Assembly (NCBI GenBank): GCA_964575345.1
Contig: CAZNQD010000001.1
Span: forward strand, 33,145 to 97,144
Length of the DNA: 64,000 nt
From: an uncultured Bacteroidales bacterium
Lineage (GTDB): Bacteria > Bacteroidota > Bacteroidia > Bacteroidales > UBA1402
Direction of reading: 5' to 3'
Positions 13,396-34,943 of this stretch are shown piece after piece. Below the pieces are notes generated by a model, which was not told the DNA's origin, searched no databases, and saw nothing but the letters and a program-made list of their open reading frames with translations. Positions within the stretch are counted from its first letter, which is position 1, and every line of letters starts with the position of its first letter. The position numbers and the translations under genes are program-made.

Positions 13396-13507
13396 GGACT
13401 ATTTTTTTCTATGCAAAAGTAATTTGTAAATCTTTTAGTGAGTTATTCGGATAACAAGCTATCTGTTAATATTGTATAACAACTTGCTTTGCGACTGCAA
13501 CAAATTG

Positions 13508-13515
13508 TACATTTG
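13508..13515 (+). promoter_or_regulatory. -7 promoter box (TACATTTG) for the downstream lipoprotein gene
   Basis: Perfect TAnnTTTG match about 32 nt upstream of ATG 13547. Confidence 0.35.
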
Positions 13516-13546
13516 CCTGATAATAATTCAATTTGACTTTGTTATA

Positions 13547-14209
13547 ATGGCACATCTGAAGTATTATAGAGGAATTGCTGCTTTTGTATTGTTTGGTTTT
13601 TTTACGGCCTGCACCGAGGTGGGTGGATATACGATTGACGTTCAAGGGCCGGGTATTGAATTTGAGATGGCCTATTTTGATCCTGAAAATCAGCAAAATG
13701 GACTGAACATAGCTTTATATGGTGATCCTAAATCCACTCAGGATGCCTTCCGGGATTACAGGCTTGTTGCCAAAAGCGATTCCATCGACGCACAGGATAT
13801 TGAGGCCTTTCTATCGGAAGTGGGACAGACCTTCAATTCTGTGGTGGAAAAAGCAGAATTGAAAAATTCCAAACTGCGCTTATCTCAGGATACGGTTGAT
13901 TTCAGTGGTGTGAATTCTCTTTTGATCAAAGTACGCAAGTATGGCGAGGATGAGTTTATTCCTTTTTGTTTAACAGAAATGAATACTGAGTCAGACAGCA
14001 AACAACTTTGTATAGAAAGCGTCTATTTTGAGTCGGACGAGATATTTAAACTCATAGAATGCGGTTTTGAAGCCATTTTATACGCAAGGGTCAACGAAAA
14101 CGGCAATGAACCCGCCTGTCTACGTGACGGAATACATTTTGAATTTTTGTCCGGAACCATTATCGCTGTCAAAGTGAAGACCGGCGCGCTTTTCGATTTT
14201 GACATTTAG
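13547..14209 (+). CDS. Hypothetical lipoprotein
   Basis: Starting at ATG 13547 gives MAHLKYYRGIAAFVLFGFFTAC, a signal peptide with a lipobox-like Cys. I recognise no family. Confidence 0.55.
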   Translation: MAHLKYYRGIAAFVLFGFFTACTEVGGYTIDVQGPGIEFEMAYFDPENQQNGLNIALYGDPKSTQDAFRDYRLVAKSDSIDAQDIEAFLSEVGQTFNSVVEKAELKNSKLRLSQDTVDFSGVNSLLIKVRKYGEDEFIPFCLTEMNTESDSKQLCIESVYFESDEIFKLIECGFEAILYARVNENGNEPACLRDGIHFEFLSGTIIAVKVKTGALFDFDI

Positions 14210-18312: not shown

Positions 18313-18324
18313 CGGAAGATTTTT

Positions 18325-18479
18325 AGGGGTGTTCCCTCGGCATTAAGTTCTTTTTGTAGTTTCTTTTGAGTCGGCCAAAACGACACTTCAAAAATACTAT
18401 GCCTGAGTGATCTGAGATTATACCCAAAAACCGGATGTAGGTAATGCTACCGTCGGGAAATATTTTCTCTTACACCCCT
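18325..18479 (+). promoter_or_regulatory. TPP (THI-box) riboswitch
   Basis: The P1 stem is AGGGGTGT...ACACCCCT. The conserved core CTGAGATTATACCC...AACCGGATGTAGGTAATGCTACCGTCGGGAA matches the THI element consensus (CUGAGA, ACCC, GGNUAAUNCC, GGGA). A long insert occupies the P3 position. Confidence 0.85.
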
Positions 18480-18507
18480 TTTGATGTTTCACTAGTAAAA
18501 TAAAAAC

Positions 18508-20724
18508 ATGAAAAGGGTTTTTTTATGCCTTACGGCGGGCATTTTTGCCATTCATTTCGTGGCAGCCGCAAAAACAGACAGTATCAGACAACTGGATTTG
18601 GACGATGTAGTGGTGCTTGCTTCCTATGCGGGAGAAAACACCCCGGTTACTCATCAAAACCTGAACAAGGCCGAGATTCGTGCCCTAAATGTGGTTTCCT
18701 CTTTGCCCCAGGTACTCTGGATGACTCCCTCGCTGGTGCATACTGCCGAAAACGGAACAAGCACCGGCAATACGGCCATGCGAATCAGAGGAACGGACGC
18801 CAGCCGCATCAATTTCAGCCTGAACGGGATTCCCATGAATAATCCCGAGTCGCAGGAAGTGTATTGGGTGAATATTCCCAATCTGACCGGCTCTCTTCAA
18901 ACCATACAAATTCAGCGTGGGGTAGGTGTGTCAGCCAATGGTACCGGAGCCTTTGGAGCCTCTGTCAATTTATTGAGCGAGCGCCCTGCAACGGAAGACT
19001 ATATGGAATCTTCCACAACAGCAGGTAGTTACGCTACTTTCGAACAGAGTATCTCTCTGGCAACATCCCGCATGCCAGGAGGTGTGCGGATGCAATTGCG
19101 TTATACGGCATTGAATGCAGACGGTTATTTACGCAACGGCTGGAGTCGTCATCAATCGCTTTACGCATCTCTGAGCAAGTCCTGGGAAAAGGCTCAGCTG
19201 AGCTTGAATTATATTTACGGAAATCAGCACACAGGAATAACCTGGGAAGGAGCTTCTAAAGAACAAATTGCTTTGGATCCCCGTTACAATCCGGCAGGAG
19301 CCATCAGAGAAGGGCTGTATTACGGCAACGAAAGCGACAATTATTGTCAACACCATATTCAGCTTTTTTATTCCCGACAGATTACGGAATCCCTCTTGTT
19401 GAATACGGGTCTGAATTATACGGACGGTTACGGCTATTATGAACAGTATAAACAAGGCCGTAAATTTTCGTCCCTGGGTTTAAACAACCAGCTGATTGAC
19501 GGGACAGAATACGATCGCAGCGATCATATCCGGGGAAAGTTCATGGCCAATGGTTTTTATACCGGCCTGTTCAATTTGAATTATCAGCAGGGAAGCCTCA
19601 AGCTCCAGGGCGGAGGCATGTACTCTTTTTACGAAGGAGTGCACTATGCCCGTTTATTATGGCTGGAACACAACAACAATATCCCTGCCAACTACGAGTG
19701 GGCGCGCAATTTTGGTGAAAAAACAGACGGCAATCTGTTTGTAAAGGCCGAATATTCCCTCTGGAATAAACTTTCTTTGTATGCCGACCTGCAATACCGT
19801 AATGTAGGATACGAACTGGAGGGAATGGATGACGACGATTTACTGGATTTAACCCAATCGCATCAATGGCAGTTCTGGAATCCCAAAATGGGTATAAACT
19901 GGCGCATAGACCAGAATCAGAAACTTTATCTTTCGGCAGGTATAGCCAATCGCGAACCTACCCGCGCAGATCTGAAGGATGCCGTAAAAGGGGGCAGCCG
20001 CCAGGTCTTGCCCGAAAGGCTGTATGATGTCGAACTGGGTTATTCGGTCAACAAATCGAACTGGTTGCTGGCTTTGAATCTGTACGATATGGAATACCAT
20101 AACCAGTTGATACCTACTGGTAAACTTAATGAAGTGGGCTATAAGCTTATGAGCAATGTGCCCTACAGTTACCGCAGAGGAATTGAGCTAAGTGCCGGCA
20201 TCAAGCCTTTGTCTGTCTTACAACTGGATGCCAATCTGAGCCTGAGTACCAGTAAGGTGAAAGATTTCAGCCTGTATTACGATACCTACGATAATGCTAC
20301 CGACTGGAATGCCATTCCGGACGAAAGCCAACAAATCAGCACCTATTACACCCTGGCCGATTTGCCTTTTTCTCCCCAATGTGTTGCCGCTGTCCGTCTT
20401 CAGTATCAGCCTGTGCATCCCTTGCAATTGAGTTTGATGGGAAAATACATAGCAGAGCAGCAGTTTAGTTATATTCAGCACGAAGAATTTCGTTTGCCGG
20501 CCTATACCCAGTTTAATTTTTCGGTTGTATATTCAGGGAGTTTAATTGGTAACAGCGACTTTGAATTGGGCTTTTATATAAACAATCTGCTGGGTAACCA
20601 GCCCCTCTGCAATGCCTGGGGATACGAAGCCGCCTTTCTGAGCGGAGAAGAGTCCTATCGTGAAGCCGGTTATTACGTTCTGGCCCCCAGACATTATATG
20701 TTGAAATTCGTTCTAAAGATATAA
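18508..20724 (+). CDS. TonB-dependent outer-membrane receptor, probable thiamine/precursor importer
   Basis: Signal peptide, TonB-box-like DDVVVLAS, plug and beta-barrel pattern. It lies immediately downstream of the TPP riboswitch and 2 nt upstream of the thiamine pyrophosphokinase gene. Confidence 0.85.
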   Translation: MKRVFLCLTAGIFAIHFVAAAKTDSIRQLDLDDVVVLASYAGENTPVTHQNLNKAEIRALNVVSSLPQVLWMTPSLVHTAENGTSTGNTAMRIRGTDASRINFSLNGIPMNNPESQEVYWVNIPNLTGSLQTIQIQRGVGVSANGTGAFGASVNLLSERPATEDYMESSTTAGSYATFEQSISLATSRMPGGVRMQLRYTALNADGYLRNGWSRHQSLYASLSKSWEKAQLSLNYIYGNQHTGITWEGASKEQIALDPRYNPAGAIREGLYYGNESDNYCQHHIQLFYSRQITESLLLNTGLNYTDGYGYYEQYKQGRKFSSLGLNNQLIDGTEYDRSDHIRGKFMANGFYTGLFNLNYQQGSLKLQGGGMYSFYEGVHYARLLWLEHNNNIPANYEWARNFGEKTDGNLFVKAEYSLWNKLSLYADLQYRNVGYELEGMDDDDLLDLTQSHQWQFWNPKMGINWRIDQNQKLYLSAGIANREPTRADLKDAVKGGSRQVLPERLYDVELGYSVNKSNWLLALNLYDMEYHNQLIPTGKLNEVGYKLMSNVPYSYRRGIELSAGIKPLSVLQLDANLSLSTSKVKDFSLYYDTYDNATDWNAIPDESQQISTYYTLADLPFSPQCVAAVRLQYQPVHPLQLSLMGKYIAEQQFSYIQHEEFRLPAYTQFNFSVVYSGSLIGNSDFELGFYINNLLGNQPLCNAWGYEAAFLSGEESYREAGYYVLAPRHYMLKFVLKI

Positions 20725-20726
20725 TT

Positions 20727-21344
20727 ATGCCTCCAACCATCATCCTCGCTAACGGAGCTTTCCCCCGAAAACCCGAATTACTGCACTTATTACGTCAGGC
20801 AGAACATATTGTTTGTTGCGACGGAGCCGCCGAAAAACTTCTGAATTTCGGTAGGGAACCCTCCTTTATCGTAGGTGATATGGACAGTCTGAGTCCGGCT
20901 CTGAAAGAGCGTTTTTCCGATCGGACTATAGTTATAGGCGAACAGGAAACCAACGATTTGACCAAAGCGGTAAATTATTGTGAATATGTTGGTTATCAGC
21001 AAATTATAATTATGGGAGCCACCGGTATAAGAGAAGATCACACTTTGGGAAACATCTCATTATTAGTGGAATATTCTGTAAGAATTAAGGATATCTGCAT
21101 ACTGACGGACTATGGTCGCATAGATGTTGTCAGGCATAACAAACGATTTGAAAGTTATCCCGGCCAGCAAATCTCTCTCTTTGCTATCGATCCGCTCATT
21201 ATAGTCAATGTGGATGGTTTAAGGTATCCCCTGGTCGATCGCAGGCTGAGCAATTGGTGGCAGGGAAGCCTGAACGAAGCGCTGGGATCCGATTTCGAAA
21301 TCCGGACGGAAAAGGGAGCCCTATTGGTTTACCGTGCTCATTGA
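20727..21344 (+). CDS. Thiamine pyrophosphokinase
   Basis: The pattern ILANG...CCDGAA...VGDMDS...TNDLTKA is typical of TPK catalytic domains, and a C-terminal thiamine-binding beta domain follows. Confidence 0.85.
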   Translation: MPPTIILANGAFPRKPELLHLLRQAEHIVCCDGAAEKLLNFGREPSFIVGDMDSLSPALKERFSDRTIVIGEQETNDLTKAVNYCEYVGYQQIIIMGATGIREDHTLGNISLLVEYSVRIKDICILTDYGRIDVVRHNKRFESYPGQQISLFAIDPLIIVNVDGLRYPLVDRRLSNWWQGSLNEALGSDFEIRTEKGALLVYRAH

Positions 21345-32706: not shown

Positions 32707-32714
32707 CAAAGATA
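32707..32714 (-). promoter_or_regulatory. -7 promoter box (TATCTTTG) for trmD
   Basis: Perfect TAnnTTTG match on the minus strand, 16 nt upstream of the ATG. Confidence 0.4.
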
Positions 32715-32794
32715 CAAAATTGCTCCGCATAAACTGCAGGGCGTCTTGTTTTCTACTTTGGCAGCCAGGCCGGCTTTTGCGGAGCCGTACAAGC

Positions 32795-33562
32795 TTAGCT
32801 GGCAGATAGCAATTCTTGTACTTTAATGTAAATCAAATCATCGATACAAACGTAAGTTGGGGTATTAATACCATACATGCCGGTGTCACTCGATTCAAAA
32901 TGCAGGCTGAGTTTGTTTAATTTGCCCAAGGAACTCAGATCCACAAATTGCCAGGAATTCAATAAAATCTTTTTGTTCTCTCTGAAATCGGCCAGATAAA
33001 AGACTTTTTGGGCGATGTAATCTCCATTGGCCTTGTAGGCTTTAAATATAATTCGCAGATAATCACCCTCTTCGAATTTCTTTGCAAAGGCATCGCCATC
33101 TCTCATAGACAGATATGCATAAGTAGAATTAGTAATTTGCATGCCTTTTATTATATGTTCCTGCTCTTGTTCGAATTGAATAAAACAGGAGGAATCGGCA
33201 TCGTAAGCGCTGTAATATAAGAGGCCGAATTGTCTGCCTCCGGCGGCTTTGCCGGCACTGCAGCTGTATTGATTGCCAAAACCCGAGCTTACAGAATCGC
33301 ACATGGCACTGAGTGAAAAACCGTACCAGGTTTCAGAACTGTAAGTTACACCTTCCCATTCGTATTCCGAAAGGGTATAGCTGTTGTTAAAAACCATATT
33401 CTGATAATTGAAAACCCGGTCGTTTTGATAATTCTCAATAACAGGTTCTTCAAAACCGATACAGATCTCTTCTTCATGGACATTGACTACAGGCTCACAA
33501 GCCAACATTCCAATTAACAGCAGGCCTAGAGGTAAAGACCTGAAAATGTTTTTTTTATTCAT
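32795..33562 (-). CDS. DUF4465-like surface lipoprotein (BtuH-like candidate corrinoid-binding protein)
   Basis: Starting at ATG 33562 gives [22 protein letters not shown], a lipoprotein signal. The segment WYGFSLS...[16 protein letters not shown]...LLYYSAYD resembles my recollection of the DUF4465 signature. A cobalamin riboswitch lies upstream. Confidence 0.65.
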
Positions 33563-33579
33563 AAATAAATGACATTTAT

Positions 33580-33620
33580 CGGGTTTCTGCAATAAAAACT
33601 TCGTAAAACGCAGAAACCCG
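33580..33620 (-). promoter_or_regulatory. Leader hairpin (candidate expression-platform element of the cobalamin riboswitch)
   Basis: Perfect 11-bp inverted repeat CGGGTTTCTGC (33580-33590) / GCAGAAACCCG (33610-33620) with a 19-nt loop. It ends 17 nt upstream of ATG 33562. Confidence 0.45.
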
Positions 33621-33779
33621 GTCCGTTTACAGAAGCCTTATATTTTTATATTGTGTTTGCCCTGCTCGCACAATGATTTCAACAACACGATGACACCGCG
33701 TGCATTTTCGGATTTTGGGGTAGAAAAAGATCCTTGAGGAAAACTTTTTCAGCTCTTGTTCCCGAAAGCATTGAAAATA

Positions 33780-33945
33780 CTAACCGGCAGGTTTTCTGAC
33801 TTGATTCACTTTGTCACCTTCCCGTCGAACAGACAGTGGTTTGCAGAAACAAAGCCTTGTAAGAATCTTACAGCAGCGGGCACTGTTCCGGATTTGCACC
33901 GGATTCCCTTTTATGCCGGTTCCGAAAGAACAGGCTTCACCAGTC
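33780..33945 (-). promoter_or_regulatory. Cobalamin (B12) riboswitch aptamer
   Basis: The minus strand reads ...AAAAGGGAATCCGGTGCAAATCCGGAACAGTGCCCGCTGCTGT...ACCACTGTCTGTTCGACGGGAAGGTG...AGTCAGAAAACCTGCCGGTT. This gives the GGGAA/GGTG..AA.CC core, the CCACTG..GGGAAGG element and the B12 box. The closing stem is AACCGGC/GCCGGTT. Confidence 0.85.
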
Positions 33946-33950
33946 GGGCA

Positions 33951-33958
33951 CAAAGTTA
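33951..33958 (-). promoter_or_regulatory. -7 promoter box (TAACTTTG) for the B12 riboswitch transcript
   Basis: Perfect TAnnTTTG match on the minus strand, just upstream of the aptamer. Confidence 0.45.
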
Positions 33959-34016
33959 GTTTTAATTGACATAGAGCAAAAACAAAAACCGATTTTTTTA
34001 TAAGTATATTTTTGTT

Positions 34017-34070: not shown

Positions 34071-34943
34071 ATGAAAATCAAATTACTTTTTATAGCAAGC
34101 TTGTTCTCAATAGCTTTGTTTGCTCAGGAAAATGCCGAAGAGGTCAAAGGACCCTGGACGTATCAAGGTATCACCGGCTTGAATTTTTCGCAGACTTCTT
34201 TTACGAATTGGAGTGAAGGTGGTGAAAATTCAGTGGCCGGCAACGTGTATTTGAACGCCTCTTTGAATTACGTCAAGGACAAAGTATCGTGGACCAACGA
34301 CTTAAGTACTAATTTTGGTATGTATTACACTACCGAAAACAATTGGAGAAAGAATATTGACAATATTAATTTCGCTTCCAAGTATGGCCGTAATATAACT
34401 AAGGTTTTATATTATGCCGCCCTGCTTGATTTTAAAACCCAGTTTGCCAATGGCTATAACTATGCTGTCAGTACTACAGACCGGGTTTCCGGTTTTATGA
34501 CCCCTGCTTACCTGAATCTTTCGGTAGGTGTGGATTATAAACCCAACGAACATTTTAGCGCGTATTATTCTCCGGTTACCGGTAAAATGACGTTTGTTTC
34601 GGATACCACCTTTTCGGTAAATTACGGCCTGCAGGCCGGTAAGAAAAATCGCGCAGAGTTGGGTAGCAGCTTCAGGGCCTCAGCCAATTACGATGTATTC
34701 AAGATAGTTAACCTTAAGTCCAACCTGGATTTATTTACGGCGTACAGTCAAAGTTTCGGCAAAGTTGATGTCAATTGGGAAGTGTTACTCAACCTCAAGG
34801 TAACTGAATTGCTTACGGTTACCTTCCAATCTACTCTGCGTTACGACGACGACATCAAATTCATTGACTCCAATGGTAATTTAGGTCCTGCAAGAGTTCA
34901 GTTTAAAGAAGTGCTTGGTGTAGGATTGTCTTATAAATTCTAA
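34071..34943 (+). CDS. DUF3078 outer-membrane beta-barrel protein
   Basis: Signal peptide, the GLNFSQTSFTNWSEGGENS motif characteristic of DUF3078, and a C-terminal ...GLSYKF beta-signal ending in Phe. Confidence 0.8.
   Translation: MKIKLLFIASLFSIALFAQENAEEVKGPWTYQGITGLNFSQTSFTNWSEGGENSVAGNVYLNASLNYVKDKVSWTNDLSTNFGMYYTTENNWRKNIDNINFASKYGRNITKVLYYAALLDFKTQFANGYNYAVSTTDRVSGFMTPAYLNLSVGVDYKPNEHFSAYYSPVTGKMTFVSDTTFSVNYGLQAGKKNRAELGSSFRASANYDVFKIVNLKSNLDLFTAYSQSFGKVDVNWEVLLNLKVTELLTVTFQSTLRYDDDIKFIDSNGNLGPARVQFKEVLGVGLSYKF

Follow-up and report, generated by a model that had tools for sequence, protein, structure and literature searches.

The 64,000-nt stretch of DNA analysed here (the window), from an uncultured Bacteroidales bacterium, carries on its minus strand a cobalamin riboswitch followed by a single gene of the btuJ family, which encodes a 255-residue lipoprotein of the DUF4465 family. 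The pair stands alone among housekeeping genes, and the features of the locus, given in the direction of transcription with the divergent neighbour last, are as follows.

33951..33980 (-): putative Bacteroidota promoter, read from sequence, with TTTG (-33) at 33980-33977 and the -7 box TAACTTTG at 33958-33951
33769..33959 (-): cobalamin riboswitch aptamer (RF00174), with L5 UGCCCG at 33882-33877 and the B12 box AGUCAGAAAACCUGCC at 33801-33786
33752..33769 (-): P13/L13 hairpin GCUUU-CGGGAACA-AGAGC, directly 3′ of P1, with the loop CGGG at 33764-33761
33563..33751 (-): remaining 5′ leader (expression platform), from the consensus fold of six orthologs
33579..33620 (-): conserved 10-12 bp hairpin CGGGUUUCUGCG-N17-UGCAGAAACCCG, ending 17 nt before the AUG
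32795..33562 (-): btuJ-family gene for the 255-residue DUF4465 lipoprotein (PF14717), with signal peptide and lipobox Cys22
32714..32785 (-): terminator-like element, GCUCCGCA (32785-32778) facing UGCGGAGC (32729-32722), then AAUUUUGU (32721-32714)
32714-32707 (-): -7 box of trmD, TATCTTTG
32691-32008 (-): trmD, on the same strand, 103 nt after the btuJ-family gene
34071-34943: DUF3078 gene, divergent

The aptamer is matched over the full length of the Rfam model RF00174 (33959..33769, minus strand; model positions 1-189 of 189), with a score of 94.7 bits against a gathering score of 31.5 and an E-value of 2.7e-22, and the only other match of an Rfam scan of the window at default thresholds is a tRNA. 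An initial annotation of this DNA, made from sequence, had placed a cobalamin aptamer at approximately 33945-33780 and proposed RF00174 as the check. The full-model match, far above the gathering score, bears this out, and all of the quoted motifs are present, with GGGAAUCCGGUGCAAAUCCGG, CCACUG...GGGAAGG, and the B12 box found in the sequence and the core motifs GGGAA, GGUG..AA.CC, and GCCACUG aligned to the RF00174 consensus at high posterior probability. The orthologous aptamers of five loci in related metagenome-assembled genomes (MAGs) score 97-104 bits with the same model. The -7 box that had been noted in front of the riboswitch is there as well, with TTTG 18 nt upstream of it, at the 5′ edge of the aptamer, and TAnnTTTG is kept in six orthologous loci, either as TAACTTTG or as TAGATTTG. 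These motifs suggest that 33951..33980 would act as a promoter; a sigma-70 promoter scan is uninformative for Bacteroidota.

The protein belongs to the Pfam family PF14717 (DUF4465), as the initial annotation had suspected, with 169.6 bits against a gathering score of 25 (E-value 1.1e-49; profile positions 4-176 of 176), and this is the sole Pfam family found in it; an NCBIfam scan of the 255-residue lipoprotein matched no family. A sequence search of the PDB returned DUF4465 structures only, namely 9QPM and 9FCT (BtuJ1; E-value about 1e-18), 9HMU (D5EK51), 4JQR, 9I2L (BtuJ2), and 4E9K. The AlphaFold2 model, built from 54 homologs, has a predicted local distance difference test (pLDDT) score of 91.8 and a predicted template modelling (pTM) score of 0.85. 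In a Foldseek comparison with the PDB its nine best matches (E-value ≤ 1e-12) are all DUF4465 proteins, from the same structures as the sequence search, and the next has an E-value of 1.6e-3; BtuJ1 is the top match (E-value 2e-17, TM score 0.73), and the fold is the augmented beta-jellyroll. The literature equates DUF4465 (PF14717; IPR027828) with BtuJ, where BT1491 of Bacteroides thetaiotaomicron is BtuJ1 and BT1957 is BtuJ2 (bioRxiv 10.1101/2025.07.01.662609; PMC12751083; PMC13398666), and assigns BtuH to another family, whose fold is different (7BIZ; PMC13616437). Neither the PDB sequence matches (E-value ≤ 1) nor the significant Foldseek matches include a BtuH chain. The earlier label of DUF4465/BtuH-like therefore stands for the family and for the expected function of corrinoid binding at the surface, while the name BtuH gives way to BtuJ.

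Four residues that contact B12 are common to BtuJ1 and BtuJ2 (Tyr146, Asn241, Thr242, and Tyr245 in BtuJ1 numbering; PMC12751083), and these align to Tyr148, Asn233, Thr234, and Tyr237 of the window protein. Tyr148, on the DE helix, and Asn233-Thr234-Pro235-Thr236-Tyr237, within the INTPTY of the HI loop, are invariant or at least 90% kept across the 54 homologs. All eight of the eight sequence-diverse DUF4465 proteins tested in the literature bind B12 (PMC13398666), and the window protein is a predicted corrinoid binder that would use Tyr148, Asn233-Thr234, and Tyr237. Its N-terminus, judged by eye, has the hydrophobic core of a signal peptide and then Cys22 (LIGMLAC), kept in the orthologs. 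The other stand-alone homologs are lipoproteins too, with acidic residues after the Cys, in keeping with Bacteroidota surface export.

Between the btuJ-family gene and trmD lies the terminator-like element, whose 8-bp stem GCUCCGCA/UGCGGAGC is invariant in five orthologs around an enclosed insert of 45-58 nt that varies in both sequence and length. It shares its last base (32714) with the start of the trmD -7 box TATCTTTG, the box that had earlier been credited to trmD and that proves to be invariant in the orthologous loci. Because this box starts at the last base of the element, the btuJ-family gene and trmD are taken to be separate transcription units, and with the helix, AAUUUUGU, and the trmD -7 box all placed between the genes, the riboswitch unit looks monocistronic. 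Transcription of the unit would end at 32714..32785, where the element may be an unusual terminator.

All large open reading frames of the window encode housekeeping genes only in Pfam and NCBIfam scans, which found no btuB, btuG, or btuFCD in the 64 kb, so the statement that no transporter gene is adjacent applies well beyond the immediate flanks. The near neighbours are glmS, a helix-turn-helix (HTH) protein, pyrK, pyrD, 2-oxoacid:ferredoxin oxidoreductase genes, and ispE. The window has one TonB-dependent receptor gene (18508-20724, plus strand; 738 residues), which was considered as a btuB and rejected, since it scores 37 bits against a BtuB cutoff of 600 bits, is not matched by the BtuB-type hidden Markov model (HMM), and sits in a thiamine context. 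In front of it lies a sub-threshold match to the thiamine pyrophosphate (TPP) riboswitch (18315-18475, plus strand; 42.5 bits against a gathering score of 54.3, E-value 7e-7), missed by the default Rfam scan, and behind it a thiamine diphosphokinase gene (20727-21344). Given these two flanks the receptor is assigned to thiamine, and 18315-21344 (plus strand) is a probable thiamine uptake unit. Two further open reading frames, 13472-14209 (plus strand; 245 residues) and 51820-53145 (minus strand; 441 residues), have no Pfam match at an E-value ≤ 1e-5.

In cobalamin riboswitches a P13/L13 hairpin is expected as the kissing-loop partner of L5, and the hairpin directly 3′ of P1 is a candidate for this role here, by analogy. 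Its L13 loop, CGGG, is complementary to the CCCG of L5 (33880-33877), and a UGCUUUCGGGA...GCA element stands directly 3′ of P1 and the aptamer in 16 of the 16 DUF4465 leaders examined, which come from many lineages. The P13/L13 motif is invariant in six close orthologs, where L5 and L13 show complementarity without covariation, both loops being invariant. Across the 16 leaders, 100-280 nt separate the B12 box from the start codon, and the P13 hairpin stands directly 3′ of the aptamer. The consensus fold of the six orthologs contains a helix in which CCUGC of the B12 box/P1 3′ strand pairs with GCAGG at 33665-33661 and which would be incompatible with the aptamer fold. The leader also has a C-rich, G-poor stretch at approximately 33715-33695 (minus strand), and its identity among orthologs (79-84%) is about that of the coding sequence (80-88%) and higher than that of the third codon positions (70-73%). 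No known RNA family was found in the leader or intergenic region at an E-value ≤ 5, apart from noise.

Closer to the gene, the hairpin at 33620-33579 is shared by all six close orthologs and absent from other DUF4465 lineages. Every predicted state includes it, and one of its pairs covaries (U-A in three sequences, C-G in three). As an intrinsic terminator it has little in its favour, lacking a canonical U-tract and lying in a leader where a generic terminator scan is blank; an attenuator, a stability element, or something else are its candidate roles. Two other ideas for the leader were discarded. Pairing of the 3′ arm of this hairpin, GCAGAAAC, with the identical-sense aptamer segment GUUUCUGC fails because two of the loci, L006 and L007, change both segments without complementarity, and a leader peptide, called as a 54-residue open reading frame in the leader of L002, is made unlikely by indels among the orthologs that break the frame.

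The closest relatives are orthologs at 79-91% identity in five uncultured Bacteroidales MAGs, whose loci keep the order DUF3078 on the opposite strand, riboswitch, DUF4465, trmD, and pyrD on the opposite strand. The DUF4465 gene is under purifying selection, with a ratio of nonsynonymous to synonymous substitution (dN/dS) of about 0.16, and evolves 2-4 times faster than trmD, pyrD, and DUF3078 (dN/dS 0.04-0.08). The window clade forms a long branch, with at most 49% identity to any homolog found and at most 39% to other surveyed lineages. Two further loci, L075 (7711-8780) and L091 (7707-8783), occupy the same chromosomal position, running from kor genes through a riboswitch, DUF4465, and trmD to pyrD/pyrK/HTH on the opposite strand. 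Their flanking proteins are 57-81% identical to those of the window (TrmD 76%), and their DUF4465 protein is only 33% identical to the window protein and resembles those of other lineages more (up to 48% identity) than those of the window clade. Either rapid divergence of the window clade or replacement of one copy in place would account for this.

How common the stand-alone layout is was addressed by a survey of 107 loci from genome and metagenome scans and encoding-contig look-ups, of which the 52 whose flanks reach 2 kb or more upstream and 3.5 kb or more downstream are evaluable and represent 37 lineages at 60% identity. Aptamers were located with an nhmmer profile, which recovered all Rfam-confirmed aptamers and matched the DUF4465 strand only, and transporters were called by HMMs for two types, BtuB-like and BtuG-like proteins. 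In 21 of the 37 lineages the gene is adjacent to a transporter, while 16 have no BtuB or BtuG in the flanks. These 16 divide into 13 with an aptamer at most 450 nt upstream, one with an aptamer further upstream, and two with no aptamer. Rfam confirms the aptamer in nine of the 13 stand-alone lineages (65-110 bits), with L024 and L025 confirmed separately. Downstream of the lone copies lie trmD, an FKBP isomerase with chorismate synthase, NusB, DsbD, an antiporter, a signal recognition particle (SRP) RNA with a tRNA, or genes on the opposite strand, and because these genes are unrelated, the riboswitch-DUF4465 module is considered autonomous. A published analysis of gene neighbourhoods points the same way, placing only 40-55% of the main DUF4465 cluster close to TonB-dependent transporters (PMC13398666). 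About one-third of the sampled DUF4465 lineages use a stand-alone riboswitch module. This share, implied but not stated by the published analysis, is indicative, because the sample consists of the 80 metagenome loci with the highest similarity to the query and the HMMs cover the BtuB and BtuG types only. The initial annotation had set the orphan layout against the described loci and read it as corrinoid capture or piracy uncoupled from a transporter locus, or as a different function. Given the recurrence of the same layout in 13 of 37 lineages, together with the published co-location figures, this is overstated; the layout is common among related bacteria and calls for no new function, and the locus is a fairly ordinary, well-explained case. 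More distant DUF4465 genes (32-45% identity) lie mostly in canonical loci with a DUF5074 (BtuG-type) propeller and a TonB-dependent receptor, where the riboswitch is often followed first by DUF4465 and then by BtuG (DUF5074) and BtuB. The stand-alone unit thus likely originated as the 5′ module of a canonical riboswitch-DUF4465-BtuG-BtuB operon.

The survey also turned up variants of the family and its surroundings. In another stand-alone lineage, that of L024 (8897-9004) and L025 (8889-9075), a Bacteroidales small SRP RNA lies directly after the riboswitch-DUF4465 unit, and L025 also has a tRNA gene. L027 (7986-8714) and L033 (7905-8606) have DUF4465 genes with neither a riboswitch nor BtuB/BtuG nearby, that of L027 directly following two sulfatase genes and glycoside hydrolases, and these members may be constitutive or otherwise regulated. 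Giant proteins of approximately 2,060-2,170 residues stand behind cobalamin riboswitches in L072/L074 (2463-8681), L082 (1218-7400), and L107 (2445-8960). In that of L074, Pfam finds BNR-associated, beta-helix, and type I dockerin domains alongside one DUF4465 domain at the C-terminus, which suggests a B12 binder anchored in cellulosome style in a non-Bacteroidota host. Tandem double DUF4465 proteins occur in L012 (2856-4523), L014 (7851-9512), L104 (7818-9434), and L076 (5814-9356), where three of the four have a type IX secretion C-terminal sorting domain and no lipoprotein signal; many single-domain homologs also carry the sorting tail.

The reading that we favour, with a probability of about 0.72, is that the locus encodes a corrinoid scavenger as a single gene under repression by B12, and that this scavenger supplies a BtuG/BtuB importer encoded elsewhere. 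The promoter, the riboswitch, the btuJ-family gene, and the terminator-like helix would together form a self-contained B12-starvation unit. When intracellular cobamide is plentiful, the aptamer would bind it, L5 would dock on the L13 loop of P13, and the downstream gene would be turned off; when cobamide is scarce, the gene would be expressed. The product would then be exported and lipidated at Cys22, probably residing at the surface of the cell or of outer-membrane vesicles, where its augmented beta-jellyroll would bind corrinoids through the DE-helix and HI-loop residues and pass the captured cobamide to the BtuG-BtuB importer of the outer membrane, whose genes would lie elsewhere in the genome. 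Nearly all cobalamin riboswitches repress expression when cobamide is bound, including those of the btu loci of B. thetaiotaomicron, and from this we infer that the riboswitch of the window is an OFF switch. In B. thetaiotaomicron the repression was tested with reporters (PMC12751083). BtuJ1 hands its B12 on to BtuG2 and BtuH2, which belong to another locus, and its association with BtuBG is not tight (10.1101/2025.07.01.662609), and BtuJ proteins load outer-membrane vesicles with cobamide (10.1101/2025.07.01.662609; PMC12751083). Since BtuJ1 acts in trans on another locus, a BtuJ encoded apart from its acceptor needs no new function.

Several observations weigh against this reading. The BtuBG acceptor is assumed, there being no btuB or btuG within the visible 64 kb of the genome. 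Tyr97 of BtuJ1 aligns to Phe95 in the window protein, and the residues after Cys22 form a weaker acidic lipoprotein export signal than in the other stand-alone homologs, which makes surface exposure less certain. BtuJ1 protein of B. thetaiotaomicron is abundant regardless of the B12 level, whereas the window gene is expected to be directly gated, so that its tight repression by a riboswitch would depart from the best-studied case. The route from aptamer to gene is also not the textbook one. P13 lies approximately 190 nt from the AUG in the window, and the generic terminator scan found no canonical intrinsic terminator in the leader. Partition-function folding of apo-like and holo-like leaders from 16 loci shows no consistent change in start-site accessibility (positions -20 to +12), with 0.43 versus 0.51 in the window and about equal values in the orthologs. 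Start-codon sequestration by simple thermodynamics is therefore unsupported, and the modelled leaders make the mode of control in Bacteroidota look unlike textbook sequestration of the ribosome-binding site; transcription attenuation, possibly Rho-dependent, would be a guess.

If the acceptor is questioned, the protein might be a pure sequestration or 'piracy' factor, which withholds or stores corrinoids and feeds no dedicated BtuBG, in an organism that may lack the canonical importer. No transporter is found in the window or within the ±8-10 kb flanks of the orthologous loci, the authors of the BtuJ1 work propose both scavenger and reservoir roles (10.1101/2025.07.01.662609), and the gene's rate of evolution exceeds that of its neighbours, as would be expected of a surface protein that faces competition. 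However, a riboswitch that reads the cobamide pool inside the cell implies that the product serves the cell's own supply, and implies cobamide use as well, hence a route of uptake or synthesis; B12-using Bacteroidota generally have BtuBG loci, according to the papers cited here, and for a genome of several Mb little follows from the lack of a transporter in 64 kb. We consider such a factor unlikely. A related and still more doubtful proposal is that the genomes of the clade have no canonical BtuB-BtuG, so that the stand-alone BtuJ feeds a non-canonical uptake route or purely withholds B12; if this were true, monocistronic riboswitch-btuJ units would be a distinct, autonomously regulated 'corrinophore' class and not detached accessories.

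Two other readings concern the extent of the unit and the identity of the ligand. That the riboswitch controls a two-gene btuJ-trmD operon, with the tRNA m1G37 methyltransferase also regulated by B12, gains something from the closeness of trmD on the same strand, from an adjacency that survives deep divergence (in L075 and L091, where TrmD is 76% and DUF4465 33% identical), and from the lack of a strong canonical terminator between the genes. It is nonetheless improbable, given that the invariant helix with its U-run and the invariant -7 box intervene, that trmD, an essential housekeeping gene, is not known to be connected with B12, and that in 12 other lineages the riboswitch-DUF4465 module precedes unrelated or opposite-strand genes or an SRP RNA. 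Least probable of all, and in our view very unlikely, is that the window protein has diverged to another ligand or function and keeps its riboswitch as a relic. The long branch, the 33% identity to the syntenic L075 copy, and the change of BtuJ1 Tyr97 to Phe could be cited for it, but the riboswitch is intact and kept across the clade at 97-104 bits, the HI loop's NTPxY motif and the Tyr of the DE helix are kept, and a dN/dS of 0.16 denotes constraint.

Read as a corrinoid scavenger that serves an importer encoded elsewhere, the locus is a clean natural case in which the expression of a B12 scavenger of the BtuJ family answers to its own riboswitch alone, and it supports a picture of BtuJ as acting in trans, independent of any single transporter locus. 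It would make a simple test system for Bacteroidota cobalamin riboswitches with the regulatory hairpin 100-280 nt from the start codon. For annotation, such genes should be named as BtuJ-family and not as BtuH. The survey is evidence that minimal riboswitch-btuJ units are widespread, and current understanding is not overturned.

Among known systems, the canonical operons (L010, L011, L022, and L023) have the same riboswitch and P13/L13 motif, with DUF4465 first, but they run on to DUF5074 (BtuG) and a TonB-dependent receptor, where the window unit stops after DUF4465. BtuH (BT1488 and BT1956; 7BIZ) is also a surface-exposed, B12-binding accessory lipoprotein of the Bacteroides btu loci, although its fold and family are unrelated to those of the window protein. 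BtuJ2 (BT1957; 9I2L) and D5EK51 of Coraliomargarita akajimensis (9HMU) are likewise augmented beta-jellyroll B12 binders that use the HI loop and DE helix, yet they are more distant, with 18-26% identity in structural alignments, and BtuJ2, unlike the window protein, has longer WX/YA loops and lies inside btu locus 2. The closest counterpart is BtuJ1 (BT1491; 9FCT/9QPM), the best match in both sequence and structure, which shares PF14717, the build of a single-domain lipoprotein of approximately 230-255 residues, the conserved contact residues, and the link to a cobalamin riboswitch, despite an identity of only about 26% to the window protein. The arrangement of the two differs, in that BtuJ1 is the last gene of the btuB1-btuGH-btuJ1 cluster, while the window gene stands alone among housekeeping genes behind a riboswitch of its own.

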